Source: a virus
Taxonomy: Duplodnaviria > Caudoviricetes
DNA: 43,715 nt
IMG/VR virus record: IMGVR_UViG_3300020042_010029
Coordinates: 1-43,715 of that record
Strand: one strand, 5' to 3'
This document shows positions 13,659 to 35,834 of the stretch, in pieces. The notes under the pieces are model-generated. The model searched no databases, was not told the origin of the DNA, and saw nothing but the letters and a program-made list of their open reading frames with translations. Numbering within the stretch: position 1 is the first letter of the stretch; every line of letters begins with the position of its first letter. The translations under genes and the position numbers were made by a program.

Positions 13659-13666
13659 TACATTTG
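13659..13666 (+). promoter_or_regulatory. Possible promoter for the glycosyltransferase cassette (near-leaderless)
   Basis: TACATTTG ends 3 nt before ATG 13670. Confidence 0.45.
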
Positions 13667-13669
13667 GGA

Positions 13670-14305
13670 ATGGAAAAAATAGATTTTACGGTACTAATAC
13701 CTGTTTATAACACACCGCCCGAACAACTTATTGAATGCGTTTATTCGCTTTGCCCTGCTAATCAAAGCATAGAGCAAGACTATAAAATAGTTATTATTGA
13801 CGACGGTTCATGCGAGATTGGAACTTGCGATGCTTTAGAATTTTTGAAACGTTCGCTTGACGTTAAAGTCCATCATTTTCCGCAAAATAAAGGCGTTTCT
13901 GCTGCTTTAAATATGGGGCATGAGTTAATAGACACGGAATATATTGCGCTGAGCGGCTCGTCAGATATATCCTTCAGGGAACGCTTTAAAATACAAACAG
14001 ACCATTTACTTGAAAACCCCGATATTGATGTACTAGGCACAAATTTATTCTCATTCTTAAATTCCGATTACAATAGAAAGGCATTGTATACAAGCACTCA
14101 CGCCTACGAAACTACTTTAAAGGAACGCTCAGAGGGTTGGCTTACCAATCACGGAACTGTAATTTACAAAAATCAAAGTGTTAAAGATGTTGGCGGGTAC
14201 AAGTTACCCGGACGGGCACAAGACGTTGATCTTTGGAAGAGAATGGCTATATCAGGTAAAAAGATAAGAACATTAAAACAAGTTTTGTACGCTTGGCGCA
14301 AATAA
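13670..14305 (+). CDS. Glycosyltransferase family 2
   Basis: VLIPVYN, IIDDGS, NKGVSAALN, VGGY and QDVDLWKR motifs; the usual DxDD site reads SGSSD. Confidence 0.9.
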   Translation: MEKIDFTVLIPVYNTPPEQLIECVYSLCPANQSIEQDYKIVIIDDGSCEIGTCDALEFLKRSLDVKVHHFPQNKGVSAALNMGHELIDTEYIALSGSSDISFRERFKIQTDHLLENPDIDVLGTNLFSFLNSDYNRKALYTSTHAYETTLKERSEGWLTNHGTVIYKNQSVKDVGGYKLPGRAQDVDLWKRMAISGKKIRTLKQVLYAWRK

Positions 14306-14306
14306 T

Positions 14307-14423
14307 ATGGCAAATAGAAGGTTTAAAAAAAGAAGGGATTACACGGCACTTTGGGCTTATTGTGTTATTATAGGTTTATGCCTATCCTTTTGGTTAACGT
14401 TGATTTATTTATTTATTTTATGA
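14307..14423 (+). CDS. Small single-TM protein, 38 aa (not in the ORF track)
   Basis: MANRRFKKRRDYTALWAYCVIIGLCLSFWLTLIYLFIL; ATGA overlap with the GT2 start at 14420. Confidence 0.55.
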   Translation: MANRRFKKRRDYTALWAYCVIIGLCLSFWLTLIYLFIL

Positions 14424-15115
14424 AAGTAAGTGTGATAATGCCTACATTTAATAGGCTTAATTTGCTCAAAAGAGCTATAAAATCATTTGAAGCGCAAGAT
14501 TATATTGACGCTGAGTTGATAATCTTGGACAACGGATGCACGGATGGCAGCAGCCAATTTTTAGCCAATTTAAGCAACCCGAATATAAAACTGATATCTA
14601 ATACAACCAACAACCCAAAAGGCTCACTGAACAAACTTTGGCTGTATTCTGAAGCCGATTTGATATGTCAGCTTCACGATGACGACGAACTCACGAAAAG
14701 TAGTATCACGGATAGAGTAGAATTGTTTAAACGCAACAAGTTCGTTGAGGTTGTTTACGGTGGTTGGATAAATCAGAAGATAGATAAAACTGCACTTGGA
14801 ACGTTTAAGGCGCAAGCCCCGAATCCCTGCAGAATGCTTCAAAATGAGTATATCAACTTTACTACTATGATGTGGAAAAACAGCATAAAGGATAGGTTTA
14901 TGTTCGATGAAGAAATGGAATTTCAAGTGGATTCGTTATTTAAAATACGTTGTGGCATGGAAACTTCAATGTCTTGCGTTGAAAATCCCGTAATGCTTTA
15001 CACTATCCATCAAGCGCAAGCTACTTATAAAATGAGGGCAACGGGAATGCTTGAAGTAGAAAACAAAATGCTTAGAACCAAAATAAATAACTTATATAAA
15101 GGCTTGTTTTTATGA
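14420..15115 (+). CDS. Glycosyltransferase family 2
   Basis: VSVIMPTFNR, ILDNGCTDGS, LHDDD; probable start MKVSV at 14420. Confidence 0.92.
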   Translation: MKVSVIMPTFNRLNLLKRAIKSFEAQDYIDAELIILDNGCTDGSSQFLANLSNPNIKLISNTTNNPKGSLNKLWLYSEADLICQLHDDDELTKSSITDRVELFKRNKFVEVVYGGWINQKIDKTALGTFKAQAPNPCRMLQNEYINFTTMMWKNSIKDRFMFDEEMEFQVDSLFKIRCGMETSMSCVENPVMLYTIHQAQATYKMRATGMLEVENKMLRTKINNLYKGLFL

Positions 15116-30590: not shown

Positions 30591-30604
30591 ATGGATAAAA
30601 GCTA

Positions 30605-30612
30605 TATATTTG
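30605..30612 (+). promoter_or_regulatory. Promoter -7 element of the DNA-modification operon
   Basis: TATATTTG right after a terminator, 17 nt before ATG 30630. Confidence 0.55.
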
Positions 30613-30629
30613 TTGTAAAAAACAACATC

Positions 30630-31241
30630 ATGGCTAAAAAATCAACACCGCTTGCATGGGAAACCGTGAAGAAAACAATCAACGAACTTAACTTGTTAGA
30701 GATTAACCCAAGAAAAATCACTGACGAGAAAAGAGCAGCACTCCAACGCTCATTAGAGAAATTCAACTTAGTTGAGATTCCAACGATAAACATTGACGAT
30801 ACAGTCATTTCAGGTAACCAACGCTTGGCCATTATGAAGGCTTTGGGCAGAGGTGAAGAAATTATCGAAGTTCGCATCCCCAACAGAAAATTAACAGAGC
30901 AAGAGCTCAAAGAGTATGTACTTATTGCCAATACCCACGCAGGAACGTTCGACGTTGACATGCTAGATGCAGAATTTGCCGACGTAACAATCGAATTTGA
31001 AGTGCCGTTTGTAGACGAGGTTGAGAAGCCTAGCAATAAAGTGCATTTACTCAACAACGAGAACCTTGAAGAAGAATTGTACGGCTTTAAAGGTGGTTTA
31101 CGCAAGGCTTTACAAATAGAGTTCGAAATGGAAGACTATGAAACTGCCGCAAACCTTGTAAAAGCATGCAGAGAGAAAGACTTGTATATTGGCAAGCTAC
31201 TTATTGAAAAACTCACAGAAGTAAAAGAACAAAACTCTTAG
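30630..31241 (+). CDS. ParB/Srx-like N-terminal domain protein
   Basis: INPRKIT...LQRSLEKFNLVEIPTINIDDTVISGNQRL...LIAN; probable start MAKK at 30630. Confidence 0.85.
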   Translation: MAKKSTPLAWETVKKTINELNLLEINPRKITDEKRAALQRSLEKFNLVEIPTINIDDTVISGNQRLAIMKALGRGEEIIEVRIPNRKLTEQELKEYVLIANTHAGTFDVDMLDAEFADVTIEFEVPFVDEVEKPSNKVHLLNNENLEEELYGFKGGLRKALQIEFEMEDYETAANLVKACREKDLYIGKLLIEKLTEVKEQNS

Positions 31242-31242
31242 T

Positions 31243-31836
31243 ATGTGTGCTATTATTGGCTTTAAAGGCGAATACGATAGTTCGTTATTACGCCCTATTT
31301 TTGATAACAGTAGAATCAGAGGTATACACGCTTTTGGTTATTCCTTCTATTTAGATGGTGTCCTGACCACAAAGAAATTCCTTAAATACACGGAATTTGT
31401 GGACTCTATTGATTCCGACAAACCCAATTTATTCATCGCTCACTTTAGATACAGCACTAGTGGCGATTATATGACCATCTGTAATAATCAGCCTTTAACT
31501 AAGAAGGATTTTTCAATAGCTTTCAATGGTGTAATTAGCCAAAAAACTATGAAGGAAATGGAGCAGGAATTCAAGATAAAGCTGCCTGCAGACAACGACG
31601 GCTTCATATTGATGGAAAAATATGAGGACTTGGAATTTATATCCAATCCAAAGTACAGCTTCGCAATGATCGGGTTGGTAGGTGGCGAACTAATTGCCAT
31701 ACGCAACAATAATCGACCGATGTGGATAAGCGATATTGGTGTAAATACTGTTATTTGCAGTACCAAGGATATATTTAACCGCTCAGGAATACAACAAGCA
31801 TCTGAAGTTCAACCTTTAATTATATTGAAATGCTAA
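31243..31836 (+). CDS. Stand-alone class II (Ntn) glutamine amidotransferase domain
   Basis: N-terminal MCAIIG (catalytic Cys), AHFRYSTSG, NNQP, FNGVI, and R...RPMW motifs as in GlmS/PurF glutaminase domains. Confidence 0.85.
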   Translation: MCAIIGFKGEYDSSLLRPIFDNSRIRGIHAFGYSFYLDGVLTTKKFLKYTEFVDSIDSDKPNLFIAHFRYSTSGDYMTICNNQPLTKKDFSIAFNGVISQKTMKEMEQEFKIKLPADNDGFILMEKYEDLEFISNPKYSFAMIGLVGGELIAIRNNNRPMWISDIGVNTVICSTKDIFNRSGIQQASEVQPLIILKC

Positions 31837-32651
31837 CATATTTAGAGTATCACAACCAAAGTATGGCTGCGAAGGATGTGGACCCGTCAGTTATTTGTCT
31901 CAACTACCTGGCAGAACGCTATGAATTGAATTTAGAGCAACGGTATTGGTTGGCTTTCTTGTACGGAACGTGCTATTGTGCTCCAACCGTGTTTTATATT
32001 TACAACGAGTTCCCTGACTTTGAAACGGTTGATGTGCCTAGATTGGAGTTTTGGTGGAACGAAAATAAACATAAGCTGATTTTCCAAACAGATAGGCAGA
32101 GAATCAAGTCCAACAATCAGTTCGTTGAGTGCTTTATCAGCTATAAAGCCCTTATCAAGACTACTCAACAAGCATATTTCGCAAGCAATAATTGGACTGA
32201 GATATACGCAAAGATTGAAAAAATCAAGTACTTTGGCAGATTCTCACTATTCAATTACTTGGACGTATTGAACGGAATAACGGACGTAACCATCAAGCCG
32301 CCATATTTAAACATGAACGAAGCAGAGAGCTGCCGGAACGGTGTTGCCTTTTCCATGGAAAGGATAGATTTGGTTGACAAAAAGCTCAATAAAGATGAGT
32401 TAATCCTGCTACATCGTGAGTTTATACGCTTGTTAAATTCAGGTATTGGCAACGTCTTCCAAATAGAAACCACACTATGCGCATATAAAAAGTATAGGTT
32501 GAGTAAACGGTATGTTGGATTCTACATTGAACGAATGAGAAAAGAAATTGTAAAAATGCAGGAAGACATCAGAGAAGGCATTTATTGGGACGTCCTTTGG
32601 CAGTTTAGACAAGAAACTTTTGACGTAAAATATCTAAAAGAGCATGAATAA
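31830..32651 (+). CDS. aGPT-PPlase / amino-acid:DNA transferase-like protein (HhH-glycosylase-related fold)
   Basis: EQRYWLAFLYGTCY, FQTDR, IKYFGRFSLFNYLD (HhH-like), IETTLCAYKK, RYVGFYIER. Confidence 0.72.
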   Translation: MLTYLEYHNQSMAAKDVDPSVICLNYLAERYELNLEQRYWLAFLYGTCYCAPTVFYIYNEFPDFETVDVPRLEFWWNENKHKLIFQTDRQRIKSNNQFVECFISYKALIKTTQQAYFASNNWTEIYAKIEKIKYFGRFSLFNYLDVLNGITDVTIKPPYLNMNEAESCRNGVAFSMERIDLVDKKLNKDELILLHREFIRLLNSGIGNVFQIETTLCAYKKYRLSKRYVGFYIERMRKEIVKMQEDIREGIYWDVLWQFRQETFDVKYLKEHE

Positions 32652-33168
32652 TGTATTTTTCATAGTTGGTAATTACGGGGTTGGAAAGTCTACTGTAATA
32701 AAAGAGCCTATTATATCTCAGGAAGGTTTATTCATCAAGATTAAGCCAAATTTGTACGTCCTTGGCACCGATATTTGTGGGGCTGATAGTTTGTCCACCT
32801 ACAAAAAAGCCTTCGTTATGCGCCAAGTATTGCGTAATAAAGACAAGAACATTATAATTACAGGCAACTACTATACGCAGCAAACCGATATACTACAACT
32901 TTACGGGCATTTTAACTTAGTATTGATATATCTTGACACTAGCTTCAAGGAAAATGCTAAACGCATCGCATATCGGGACAAAGTTATCAATATAGATACC
33001 TACAACTCAAAGCTAAAACTCCACCACGCACTCATAAAGAAGACTAAAGGCTACAGAAAATTGTTTGTAATCGACAACGATCAACCTGCAGCTGAAGTAA
33101 AAAAACATGTATTTAACATTATAAACGATGAAACGAATAGAGCTAATTCAAGTACCTCACAACTATAA
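32644..33168 (+). CDS. P-loop kinase, 5-hydroxymethyluracil-DNA-kinase-like
   Basis: Walker A GNYGVGKST, YVLG...GADSLS, lid arginines RIAYR; located between the transferase-like and dioxygenase genes. Confidence 0.7.
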   Translation: MNNVFFIVGNYGVGKSTVIKEPIISQEGLFIKIKPNLYVLGTDICGADSLSTYKKAFVMRQVLRNKDKNIIITGNYYTQQTDILQLYGHFNLVLIYLDTSFKENAKRIAYRDKVINIDTYNSKLKLHHALIKKTKGYRKLFVIDNDQPAAEVKKHVFNIINDETNRANSSTSQL

Positions 33169-33907
33169 AGTGGGTGATGTTTGCGGTCCAATTGAACCGA
33201 ATGTAACTGAAGATTGTATCTTTGCCGAAAATGGTGAGGACGTTGGTTTTTATATCCGAAATATAAAAGAACACTCGCAAAAGTTGTTCGACTTTGTTGA
33301 GATAGCCAATAAAGAGTTCCGAAGCAAAAGAGTACCCAAGTCCCCGATGAACAGAACGAGTGGCGAAATCGGACATTCAGAGAAGGTTCAGCAATATTCT
33401 ACAATACTTGGCTCAGTTCCACCACGGGCTCACATGAGAAGACCATATCCAAGTATTTCAAGCGTCCATCAGCACCAATCAGCTGAAACATTTGTTAAAG
33501 CGATGTTGTTAGTCTGCAGGGAATCTGAAGAACTAATCTTGAAGTATACACCCGAAATATACAAGCGTCAACTTGAAATCATTGAAGAAACAACAGCAAA
33601 GCAATGGAGATTCGGCAAATTGTTTACTAGCTCAATTAGCAACTTTAACATAGCAGCTTCTTTCCATACCGATAAAGCAAACCTACAAGGCTGCGTAAAC
33701 GTAATACTTGCAAAAAGACATCACGCTAAAGGCGGCAATACAACCGTGCCTGATTATAATGCTACAATGGATAGCTGCGACAACTCAATGCTTGTATATC
33801 CTGCTTGGAGAAACCTTCACGCCGTTACTCCAATAGAGCCTACACAAAAGGGCGGCTACAGAAATAGCTTAGTGTTCTATCCGCTCAAAGCTTTCAAAGG
33901 GCTATAA
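33128..33907 (+). CDS. TET/JBP-family 2OG-Fe(II) dioxygenase
   Basis: FTSSISNFN...FHTDKAN (HxD), NLHAVTP (distal His), RNSLVFY (2OG-binding Arg, Rx5Y). Confidence 0.85.
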   Translation: MKRIELIQVPHNYKVGDVCGPIEPNVTEDCIFAENGEDVGFYIRNIKEHSQKLFDFVEIANKEFRSKRVPKSPMNRTSGEIGHSEKVQQYSTILGSVPPRAHMRRPYPSISSVHQHQSAETFVKAMLLVCRESEELILKYTPEIYKRQLEIIEETTAKQWRFGKLFTSSISNFNIAASFHTDKANLQGCVNVILAKRHHAKGGNTTVPDYNATMDSCDNSMLVYPAWRNLHAVTPIEPTQKGGYRNSLVFYPLKAFKGL

Positions 33908-33968: not shown

Positions 33969-34472
33969 ATGAAACACGAACATAAGTTATGGGCAAATCA
34001 CATTATAAGTGGGAAGACACCCGTTGACGCTGCGTTACTTGTGTGGACTAACATAGCAAGAAAGACAGCCTTCAATCGGGCAGGCATATTAGGGAAGGAT
34101 TCGGGAATACAAAACTATATTCGGGAACAACGTGAAAAAATAGCCAATAAAACGTCAGAAACTTTAGCAGACGAACTTTCTAAGGGTGAGGTGGGTATTT
34201 TATTGGACTCAATAGCAAAGCGTCAGATTTTGGCTAAAATTGCGTCAGGAACGTATGAGACAGAAAAATTGGTAATGGTTAACGGCTCACCCAAGAAAAT
34301 CAAGATTAAGCCCGATTTTGCCGACATCATCCGAGCTATTGAATTAGACAACAGAATGAGCGGCGATTTATTCCTTCCAAAAGAGAATAAGGCAAGTAAA
34401 GCAGATGAAGTAACAAGAGTAGTAATTGTGGAAGATACAACAGAACCTAATGCAAACAACGGTAACGATTAG
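33969..34472 (+). CDS. terS: Terminase small subunit
   Basis: N-terminal HTH-like region, IQNYI, RQILAKIA, RAIELDNRMSG; overlaps terL. Confidence 0.75.
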   Translation: MKHEHKLWANHIISGKTPVDAALLVWTNIARKTAFNRAGILGKDSGIQNYIREQREKIANKTSETLADELSKGEVGILLDSIAKRQILAKIASGTYETEKLVMVNGSPKKIKIKPDFADIIRAIELDNRMSGDLFLPKENKASKADEVTRVVIVEDTTEPNANNGND

Positions 34473-35688
34473 TAAACCAAAGCCCCACACGGGACAAGTA
34501 TTGGTTATTCAAGGATTTAAGAGATTTAATGTTGTAGCCAATGGCAGACGTTGGGGCAAGACTCAACTCGCAATTAAGTTAGCCATGGAAACCATGATCG
34601 CAGGAAGTCCCGTTGGTTATTTTGTGCCTACGTTTGACTTTGCTGAGGAGTTTTGGGAAGAAATGAAGGAACGGTTGGAACCTATAACAACCTACAAGTC
34701 CGAATCCAAGATGACAATCAGATTGTCCACGGGCGGCTCATTAAAAGTGTGGTCGCTAGAGAAGAAACGGGCAGGACGTTCGCGAAAGTACAAGAGAGTC
34801 ATTGTCGATGAAGCAGCCTTCTCTAAGGACTTGCGAGAGTCATGGGAACGGGCTATAAGACCAACGTTGACTGACTTATCGGGTGACGCTTTCTTTCTAT
34901 CATCACCCGTATTTGGAGCGTATTTTCAAGAGCTTGCAGAAAACAGCAGGAAGTACCCCAATTGGGCTACATTCCAAATGGCTACAAGTACTAATCCGTA
35001 CATATCAGCTAAGGAATTGGCAGAGATTAAAAGCCAGCTTGACCCTTACACTTGGCGCCAAGAATTTGAAGCAGAATTTGTCAACTTAACGGGCAAAGCC
35101 TTTGCTTATTGCTTCGAACGTAGCAAGCATATAGTAGATTATGGCGTACCCAAAAAGAACTTGCCCGTGTACCTATCTTTTGACTTTAACGTTGACCCAA
35201 TAACTTGTATTGCTTCTCAGCACGCTGAAGATAACAGCTACATTTATACGTTCGTTGAGTTTAGATTGGAGTCTTCTGACATTTGGAAGCTCTGCGACGC
35301 AATAAAGACAAAGCTTGACGGCTTCTACTTTTTTGTAACGGGTGACGCTAGTGGTAAGAACCGCTCAGCGATGACAAAGGATGGTATGAATTACTACACG
35401 ATAATTGCCAACGAGCTTGATTTGGTTCCTCAGCAATTCAACGTACCTGCAGCGAATCCATTAGTTAAGAACAGCCGTATATTATGTAACTCCATGCTAT
35501 ACAGGCATCCGAAAGTTATGATTCATCCAAGGTGTGAGTATCTCATCAAGGATATTGAATTTGTTCAGGTAAAAGACAACGGGGACATAGATAAAGATAC
35601 TAACAAATCATTAACGCATTTACTAGACACTTGGAGATACTATTTGAATACGTACTTTAGTGACTTTATCAAGCTTCGCTCAAATTAA
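34450..35688 (+). CDS. terL: Terminase large subunit
   Basis: PHTGQ, GRRWGKT (Walker A), IVDEAAF (Walker B), QEFEAEF, DFNVDP, GDASG, HLLDTWRY. Confidence 0.95.
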   Translation: MQTTVTISKPKPHTGQVLVIQGFKRFNVVANGRRWGKTQLAIKLAMETMIAGSPVGYFVPTFDFAEEFWEEMKERLEPITTYKSESKMTIRLSTGGSLKVWSLEKKRAGRSRKYKRVIVDEAAFSKDLRESWERAIRPTLTDLSGDAFFLSSPVFGAYFQELAENSRKYPNWATFQMATSTNPYISAKELAEIKSQLDPYTWRQEFEAEFVNLTGKAFAYCFERSKHIVDYGVPKKNLPVYLSFDFNVDPITCIASQHAEDNSYIYTFVEFRLESSDIWKLCDAIKTKLDGFYFFVTGDASGKNRSAMTKDGMNYYTIIANELDLVPQQFNVPAANPLVKNSRILCNSMLYRHPKVMIHPRCEYLIKDIEFVQVKDNGDIDKDTNKSLTHLLDTWRYYLNTYFSDFIKLRSN

Positions 35689-35723: not shown

Positions 35724-35795
35724 CGTGGGGTAGAGCAGAGGCAGCTCGCTTGGCTCATACCCAAGACGTCGGTGGTTCGAATCCATCCCCCGCAA
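35724..35795 (+). tRNA. tRNA-Met(CAT), initiator type; CCA not encoded
   Basis: Acceptor CGTGGGG/CCCCGCA with C1:A72 mismatch; D stem GAGC/GCTC (A11:U24); anticodon arm CTTGG-CTCATAC-CCAAG; T arm GGTGG-TTCGAAT-CCATC. Confidence 0.93.
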
Positions 35796-35834
35796 CGAAA
35801 GTTAAGGGTTAACTTTTTTTAGTTAGTAAAGATT

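Follow-up and report, generated by a model that had tools for sequence, protein, structure and literature searches.

A stand-alone glutaminase linked to a base-flipping DNA transferase in phage thymine-modification clusters, and its predicted role in the formation of 5-aminomethyl-deoxyuridine

A phage gene for a free-standing glutaminase, placed among genes for the modification of DNA, raises the question of which enzyme the glutaminase serves and which base the two would make. We addressed this question in a window of 43,715 nucleotides, the whole of virus record IMGVR_UViG_3300020042_010029, which is a complete 43.7-kb phage genome bounded by 121-bp direct terminal repeats. A preliminary description of this DNA had proposed that ammonia released by the glutaminase passes to the neighboring transferase and yields an unusual base, 5-aminomethyl-dU (5-NmdU), and had named released glutamate as the alternative nucleophile.

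A probable thymine-modification cluster beside the terminase

Five genes on the plus strand lie in the order ParB, glutaminase, AADT, kinase and TET/JBP, followed by the terminase. The first encodes a ParB-like protein (30591..31241, with a possible start at ATG 30630; PHROG ParB-like, E 6.9e-16), and the second encodes the 197-aa stand-alone class II (Ntn) glutaminase, hereafter GATase (31243..31836), which was assigned from profile, fold and conserved residues. These are followed by a 273-aa base-flipping transferase of the AADT/aGPT-Pplase2 type (31830..32651; PF18724, E 2.1e-19, 70.6 bits against a cut-off of 26.2), a P-loop kinase with the motif GNYGVGKST that is likely a 5-hmdU DNA kinase (32644..33168), and a TET/JBP 2OG-Fe(II) dioxygenase that is likely a thymine hydroxylase (33128..33907). 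The kinase gave weak SKI and guanylate-kinase matches and reached E 2e-6 against a profile seeded in part with PF18751 proteins. The dioxygenase fell just under the PF12851 cut-off (E 9.5e-8) and carries the motif residues H180-x-D, H231 and R245. Directly 3' of the cassette, a 167-aa ORF and the terminase large subunit occupy 33969..35688 on the same strand (TerL phrog_2, E 1.3e-28); the ORF matched no family in Pfam or PHROG and is called the terminase small subunit by position only. A tRNA-Met (CAT) gene comes directly after the large subunit (35724-35796, plus strand), and two adjoining family-2 glycosyltransferase genes (13664-14305 and 14351-15115), whose neighbors are large ORFs without a family match, lie far from the cassette.

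The ParB and GATase genes are 1 nt apart, and the following genes overlap by 7 nt (GATase and AADT), 8 nt (AADT and kinase) and 41 nt (kinase and TET). The overlap of the GATase stop with the AADT start that had been described is therefore real; we rejected it as evidence of a partnership because every junction in the cassette is similarly tight.

The presence of ParB, TET/JBP, GATase, kinase and AADT equals the gene content of a ParB-dependent T-dioxygenase cluster. Such dioxygenases regularly occur together with GATases, P-loop kinases and AADTs (O'Toole et al. 2026, PMC13229309), and amidotransferases and amidoligases have been reported in association with metavirome clusters, with their function given as unknown (Lee et al. 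2021, PMC8989533). The clade C1 T-dioxygenase clusters of these papers resemble the window in having the five gene types beside the terminase and no C5-methyltransferase. As far as the accessible text of PMC13229309 and PMC8989533 goes, thymine oxidation was tested or the GATase was listed, and no GATase role, product or GATase::AADT fusion is given; the motifs of the window TET were absent among the expression constructs in the construct table of PMC13229309. In the window, no C5-methyltransferase match was found among the 52 ORFs scanned against Pfam (102 ORFs are listed), and a profile search of the genome returned no significant lyase, GNAT, PLP, radical-SAM, thymidylate synthase or amidoligase match. 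An activator role of ParB has been demonstrated for homologous ParB-TET pairs (PMC13229309), and by analogy the window ParB is likely the activator of its TET/JBP enzyme. The five-gene cassette as a whole likely modifies thymine after replication. The same cassette was observed on two contigs from bacterial MAGs, which carry the labels Sediminibacterium and Saprospiraceae and hint weakly at hosts in the Bacteroidota.

The glutaminase and its probable partner

The GATase ORF begins with MC and contains the motifs HFRYSTSG and FNG, in agreement with the preliminary description, and the fold matches to GlmS, PurF and EgtC span its whole length and show no synthase domain. Alone, the protein gave a weak Pfam match under the cut-off (GATase_6, E 0.0046), and a profile of 95 GATase sequences matched B. 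subtilis PurF at E 2.4e-6. Its AlphaFold model (pLDDT 96.5) matched the GlmS glutaminase domain (1xff; Foldseek E 2.8e-11, TM 0.75), EgtC (4zfk; E 9.4e-10, TM 0.73) and PurF (1ao0), and because these scores are similar, the fold cannot tell whether the protein donates ammonia or hydrolyzes gamma-glutamyl bonds. In NCBIfam, the window protein matched purF only, with no match to EgtC (TIGR03442) at E 0.01, nor any in the phage genome (0 of 1), and GATase::AADT fusion proteins scored 1e-13 and 3e-9 for purF against 6e-4 and 2e-3 for EgtC. Judged by sequence, the protein leans towards the role of an ammonia donor rather than that of a gamma-glutamyl hydrolase.

The residues C2, R26, R69, T72, N95, G96 and D119 align with those of E. 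coli PurF and GlmS, and C2 would become the N-terminal Cys once Met is removed; we take R69, T72 and D119 to bind glutamine and N95-G96 to serve the oxyanion. Of the 182 copies linked to an AADT, 176 have C2 (six gaps), 178 have R69, Y70, T72, N95 and G96 (four gaps) and 179 have D119 (three gaps). Since the pocket for the alpha-amino and alpha-carboxyl groups is conserved, the substrate should be glutamine or a gamma-glutamyl compound. Y70 aligns with a Tyr of PurF, presumably with a channel-gate role, and with Trp74 of GlmS, a position held by Gln in stand-alone YafJ and by Ala in 3mdn. Trp74 is the gate of the ammonia channel of GlmS (PMC7000685). EgtC and YafJ are likewise single-domain Ntn proteins with a similar fold score, but the window GATase differs from them in the missing EgtC HMM match, in the aromatic residue at position 70 and in the synthase-like partner to which it is fused in relatives.

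A scan of viral contigs with the single GATase sequence returned nothing, and an alignment-based scan succeeded. The family comprises 256 clusters at 50% identity (E <= 1e-30). No cultured carrier was found, the GATase matches being only 20-28% identical, and the two candidates inspected, Cygsa01 and VPALA, have no annotated GATase next to the AADT.

Four sets of loci were compared with profiles of our own. Viral contigs were scanned for the AADT (best 80 of 169 matches) and the GATase (best 80 of 199 matches). The near set comprises 123 distinct contigs (145 loci minus 22 duplicates); the distant set is the best 80 of 460 metagenome loci scanned with GATase::AADT fusion proteins; and a glycine-type set (best 80 of 100 loci) and a ViI-like set (best 80 of 189) complete the comparison. 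Conserved linkage of the two genes had been named beforehand as the observation on which the proposal could fail, and it held: GATase was present in all 80 AADT-selected viral loci (best 80 of 169). On the 123 near contigs we found GATase in 123, AADT in 121, TET in 120, kinase in 117 and ParB in 107, and the two contigs without AADT stop at the contig edge. GATase lies 5' of AADT in 121 of 121 cases, directly adjacent in 83 and with a GNAT alone between them in 38; this order is fixed, whereas the kinase, TET and other cassette genes change position across the set.

Of the 12 proteins found when longer relatives were sought, 10 are single chains of GATase and AADT (605-668 aa), and a fused GATase::AADT ORF occurs in 8 of the 80 distant loci. 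Four fused loci, all lacking TET, adjoin a thymidylate-synthase-family gene, presumably representing a pre-replicative 5-hmU route, and a kinase; two others adjoin TET. As fused proteins are found both in the presence and in the absence of TET, the GATase tracks the AADT and not TET. Near-absolute linkage and natural fusions thus support the transferase as the probable partner of the glutaminase, as the preliminary description had proposed. GATase was found in 59 of the 80 distant loci, and 19 of the 21 without it end 5' at a contig edge according to the gene maps. Two well-covered related loci, L351 with an amidoligase and L369 with a GNAT and no lyase, had no GATase found and are genuine exceptions. 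Their AADTs belong to the GATase-linked branch, no FAD lyase was detected in them, and L369 has a 201-aa ORF without assignment 5' of its AADT.

Two single-member proteins join the GATase to other domains. P0242 (449 aa) consists of a GATase-family N-terminal part and a thymidylate-synthase domain; its two parts appear cut short, and it could be a chimera of assembly, but should it prove genuine, it would point to amination at the level of the nucleotide. P0250, in which a GATase N-terminal part is joined to a NAGPA domain, is probably a chimera.

Pairwise protein distances from 54 representatives were used to calculate a partial correlation for each gene pair. GATase-AADT gave a partial r of 0.72 and ParB-TET, a known cognate pair (PMC13229309), gave 0.55; the other eight pairs reached at most 0.34, and GATase-TET was close to zero. 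In the 16 representatives in which a GNAT separates the two genes, GATase-AADT reached 0.80 and the adjoining AADT-kinase pair -0.11. With the gene order of the window (n=25), ParB-TET gave 0.62, GATase-AADT 0.46 and other adjacent pairs -0.05 to 0.19, and in other subsets kinase-TET rose to 0.68-0.71 and ParB-TET fell to 0.04. Pairwise distances are non-independent, and the permutation P values are optimistic. The co-variation of GATase and AADT is as strong as that of the known ParB-TET pair, and the test is not a clean one.

The AADT model (pLDDT 96.2) matched PaMx11 gp46/PUGT (8z2m) with Z 20.1 and rmsd 3.1 over 246 aligned residues, and the next family followed at Z 9.0; gp46 escaped PDB sequence searches with both the AADT sequence and its profile and was found by fold search only. 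D18, E213, T214 and C217 correspond to gp46 D24, E243, T244 and C247, and F138 and N142 stand in place of gp46 W146 and K150. In gp46, W146 and K150 bind glycine, and C247 and E243 are the catalytic Cys and Glu (PMC11472151). The Asp at the D18 site is invariant in 102 of 102 GATase-linked AADT representatives. At the carboxylate-binding site, Trp occurs in none of these 102, which have F, Y or H, versus 25 of 25 lyase-linked representatives; the Lys site holds one of N, I, F and L in 97 of the 102 and K in all 25 lyase-linked proteins. These sites exclude the window AADT as a gp46-type glycine transferase. We rejected the loss of W146 and K150 as proof of ammonia, since the ViI O-serine transferase lacks both too and PhiW-14 gp109 has Tyr and Lys, and Y232 was rejected as a signature because it also occurs outside the GATase-linked AADTs. 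The best phage match to the window AADT has 30.8% identity, and the closest characterized AADT is the serine transferase ViI gp247 (28-31%). In a FastTree phylogeny of 225 AADTs, the GATase-linked proteins do not form one clade; their common node takes in ViI-like and 29 PLP-linked proteins, with deep support weak at 0.46-0.80.

The predicted base and competing explanations

The PaMx11 route starts with the attachment of glycine to the base; an FAD lyase then cuts this back to 5-NmdU, whose amine is acetylated by a GNAT (PMC8989533). Neither an FAD lyase nor PLP enzymes were found in any of the 123 near or 80 distant loci, and no radical-SAM isomerase was found on the 123 near contigs. Conversely, the window-type GATase occurs in none of the 80 glycine-type loci, where the FAD lyase is present in 26. 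A GNAT or amidoligase accompanies 15 of these 26 lyase loci versus 2 of the 54 others (Fisher 1e-7), and 13 of 21 versus 2 of 29 after clustering at 70%. Among the 80 ViI-like loci, 43 have PLP enzymes and two have a GATase, which is of a longer, different type and lies beside an amidoligase. GNATs are present on 57 of the 123 near contigs and in 48 of the 80 distant loci, and amidoligases in 1 of 123 and 21 of 80, respectively; in amidoligase-bearing clusters, the amidoligase could be the ammonia acceptor instead. The genes of about 134 aa in 28 of 63 near representatives are GNATs by Pfam, with at least 9 gains or losses. Orthology of the GATase-linked GNATs with gp48 was not supported: they resemble it only distantly (best E 3e-8) and mostly group apart.

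The GATase thus takes the place of the lyase and is accompanied by the same amine-decorating genes, as expected if both routes end in a primary aminomethyl group, and this swap of tailoring enzymes points to the aminomethyl product that had been proposed. Since the window genome has no detectable GNAT or amidoligase, free 5-NmdU is predicted as its final base (computed mass 257.10, dT+15.01). The base itself has been described before, 5-NmdU being a characterized PaMx11 intermediate (PMC8989533); a glutamine route to it in DNA was not found in the literature searched.

Related clusters contain further genes. ORFs of 430-495 aa without a Pfam match lie between the GNAT or amidoligase and the AADT in amidoligase clusters (L342:3515-4999, L345:2250-4994 and similar), and PF01451 low-molecular-weight phosphatase genes or domains occur in AADT clusters (L105:2961-3482, L351:3191-4567, L385:6672-7100), once fused to a weak amidoligase match. 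Other fusions and insertions include a TET-AADT chain (L303:3801-5786), an AADT with a likely kinase part (L285:4917-6503), a TET-kinase chain (L319:1608-3518) and an AADT with an intein and HNH nuclease (L289:4959-6950). Gene product 88 (PF17338) lies beside some cassettes (L113:3119-3706, L138:2493-3245).

On balance, we favor a reading, drawn from sequence comparison, in which the GATase is the ammonia-supplying subunit of the AADT and 5-phosphomethyl-U in DNA is aminated to 5-aminomethyl-dU. Upon activation by ParB, the TET/JBP enzyme would hydroxylate thymine in DNA to 5-hmU, which the kinase would convert to 5-phosphomethyl-U, both steps being modelled on homologues. The AADT would then flip the base, Cys217 would add to C6 and the phosphate would leave, producing an exocyclic methylene; the catalytic residues for this step are seen to be conserved, and the mechanism is taken from gp46 and gp51. 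The Ntn protein would hydrolyze glutamine through Cys2 and pass ammonia to the exocyclic methylene, possibly within a putative complex with a tunnel. A precedent is M6 gp51, which traps foreign nucleophiles (PMC8989533). The free amine would be final in the window phage, and about half of its relatives would acetylate it to 5-AcNmdU. That 5-NmdU is the product, whichever the order of steps, appears quite probable. For the fuller picture, in which GATase and AADT would form a two-subunit, sometimes fused, glutamine-dependent amidotransferase acting on a flipped base of double-stranded DNA, with ammonia channelled into the glycosylase-fold site and free cationic 5-aminomethyluracil as the final product, widespread in uncultured phages, we see even chances.

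The Ntn protein might instead act as an EgtC-like gamma-glutamyl hydrolase. The AADT would attach a nucleophile protected by a gamma-glutamyl group (glutathione or gamma-Glu-Cys through sulphur, or a gamma-glutamyl amine) and removal of glutamate would expose an amine for the GNAT, giving a base larger than NmdU. EgtC is among the top fold matches, the conserved pocket demands just a gamma-glutamyl group, and the GNAT link and most of the comparative data would be explained equally well. A beta-mercaptoethanol adduct indicates that an AADT can accept a thiol (PMC8989533); amidoligases, moreover, occur in 15 of the 59 distant loci with GATase. We nevertheless regard this explanation as unlikely, as NCBIfam places the window protein in purF and scores the fusions for purF well above EgtC, Y70 is invariant like a channel-gate aromatic, and the amidoligase is absent from 122 of 123 near contigs and from the window genome and accompanies the FAD lyase without GATase in five loci. 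A different order of events would have the AADT couple glutamine via the amide nitrogen, after which the Ntn enzyme would cut the gamma-glutamyl bond on DNA, yielding 5-NmdU with no free ammonia or tunnel. It fits the linkage, fusions, GNAT pattern and pocket as well as our preferred reading does, but a carboxamide nitrogen is a poor nucleophile, and the amidoligase product, which would be a gamma-glutamylated amine, would be undone by a DNA-acting hydrolase in the same cluster. We consider this order improbable even though it mirrors the attach-then-trim logic of gp46 and gp47 (PMC8989533).

There is a similarly small chance that the AADT is a ViI-type amino-acid transferase, making an O-serine or similar product, and that the GATase acts elsewhere, for example in the amidation of a side chain or of a TET-made 5-carboxy-U. 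ViI gp247, the closest characterized relative, nests among the GATase-linked AADTs in the tree, and phage T-dioxygenases can oxidize iteratively (PMC13229309). Against this stand the fusions, which are to the AADT and occur also without TET in the locus, the GATase-TET correlation near zero, the Asp18 amine-binding site, which never varies among the GATase-linked representatives and seems to be missing from ViI, and a search of the window genome in which no carboxyl-activating ligase was found. The weakest rival is the alternative named in the preliminary description, in which the glutamate released by the glutaminase as its other product would be the nucleophile and alpha-glutamylthymine would form as in SP10. 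Glutamate is abundant in cells without any glutaminase, and the GNAT link and the exclusion of the lyase would be left unexplained. N-alpha-gluT is a known base (PMC8989533), but the GATase profile had no match in SP10, nor in PhiW-14, ViI, PaMx11 or BrownCNA (0 of 5), in a search that recovered its positive control, and we find this alternative hardly credible.

Relation to known systems and meaning

We conclude that the feature exists and is conserved, and that it belongs to a known type of cluster in which one step is uncharacterized. A close counterpart is the gp46-gp49 module of PaMx11 (glycine transferase, FAD lyase, GNAT and kinase, making 5-NmdU and 5-AcNmdU), which shares with the window the AADT fold, the catalytic Cys, Glu, Thr and Asp and the same predicted base, with a GNAT also in about half of the window's relatives. 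Unlike PaMx11, the window has no FAD lyase and no W146/K150, it has a GATase, and a TET replaces the dUMP hydroxymethylase. ViI gp247 has the motifs FGR, ES.RNG and RY.G in common with the window AADT, but ViI has no GATase, uses a PLP decarboxylase, apparently lacks Asp18 and makes an O-linked product. PurF and GlmS share with the window GATase the Ntn fold, the Cys-1 nucleophile, the Arg, Thr, Asn-Gly and Asp pocket and the aromatic gate residue; in the window, by contrast, the glutaminase is a separate gene and the predicted acceptor is a DNA base on a helix-hairpin-helix glycosylase fold, not a small metabolite. We know of no dedicated glutaminase for MnmEG, whose RNA substrate and unrelated enzymes set it apart from the window. 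With ammonium, MnmEG makes nm5U in tRNA, and ammonium and glycine act there as alternative nucleophiles leading to an aminomethyl at uracil C5, which provides a precedent (PMC3936742).

Two cultured phages, Rhodococcus phage Tonitrus (L150) and Mycobacterium phage BrownCNA (L151), carry ParB, TET, AADT and kinase with no GATase match in the locus. The Tonitrus AADT has the glycine-type W/K and that of BrownCNA is ViI-like, and both are usable contrasts for nucleoside analysis; Tonitrus gp8 and gp2 had no significant match to gp47 and gp48.

The cluster type (O'Toole 2026; Lee 2021) and 5-NmdU as a PaMx11 intermediate are already in print. A literature search, with most subscription journals outside it, returned no paper giving a GATase role, a fusion, or NmdU from glutamine. 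The analysis proposes a specific role for GATases that the accessible text of PMC13229309 and PMC8989533 leaves without a function, and predicts a shortcut to a base that has so far been made in DNA only via glycine. The natural single-chain GATase::AADT fusions are ready targets for structure and assay, and the one-step enzymatic placement of a primary amine on 5-hmU would offer a handle for labelling and sequencing 5-hmU. For the phage, the likely purpose of the modification is protection from host nucleases. If the proposal is true, class II amidotransferases would gain a DNA polymer as acceptor and the ammonia-channelling enzymes a new synthase fold, and the ammonium branch of tRNA nm5U synthesis would have its counterpart in DNA.
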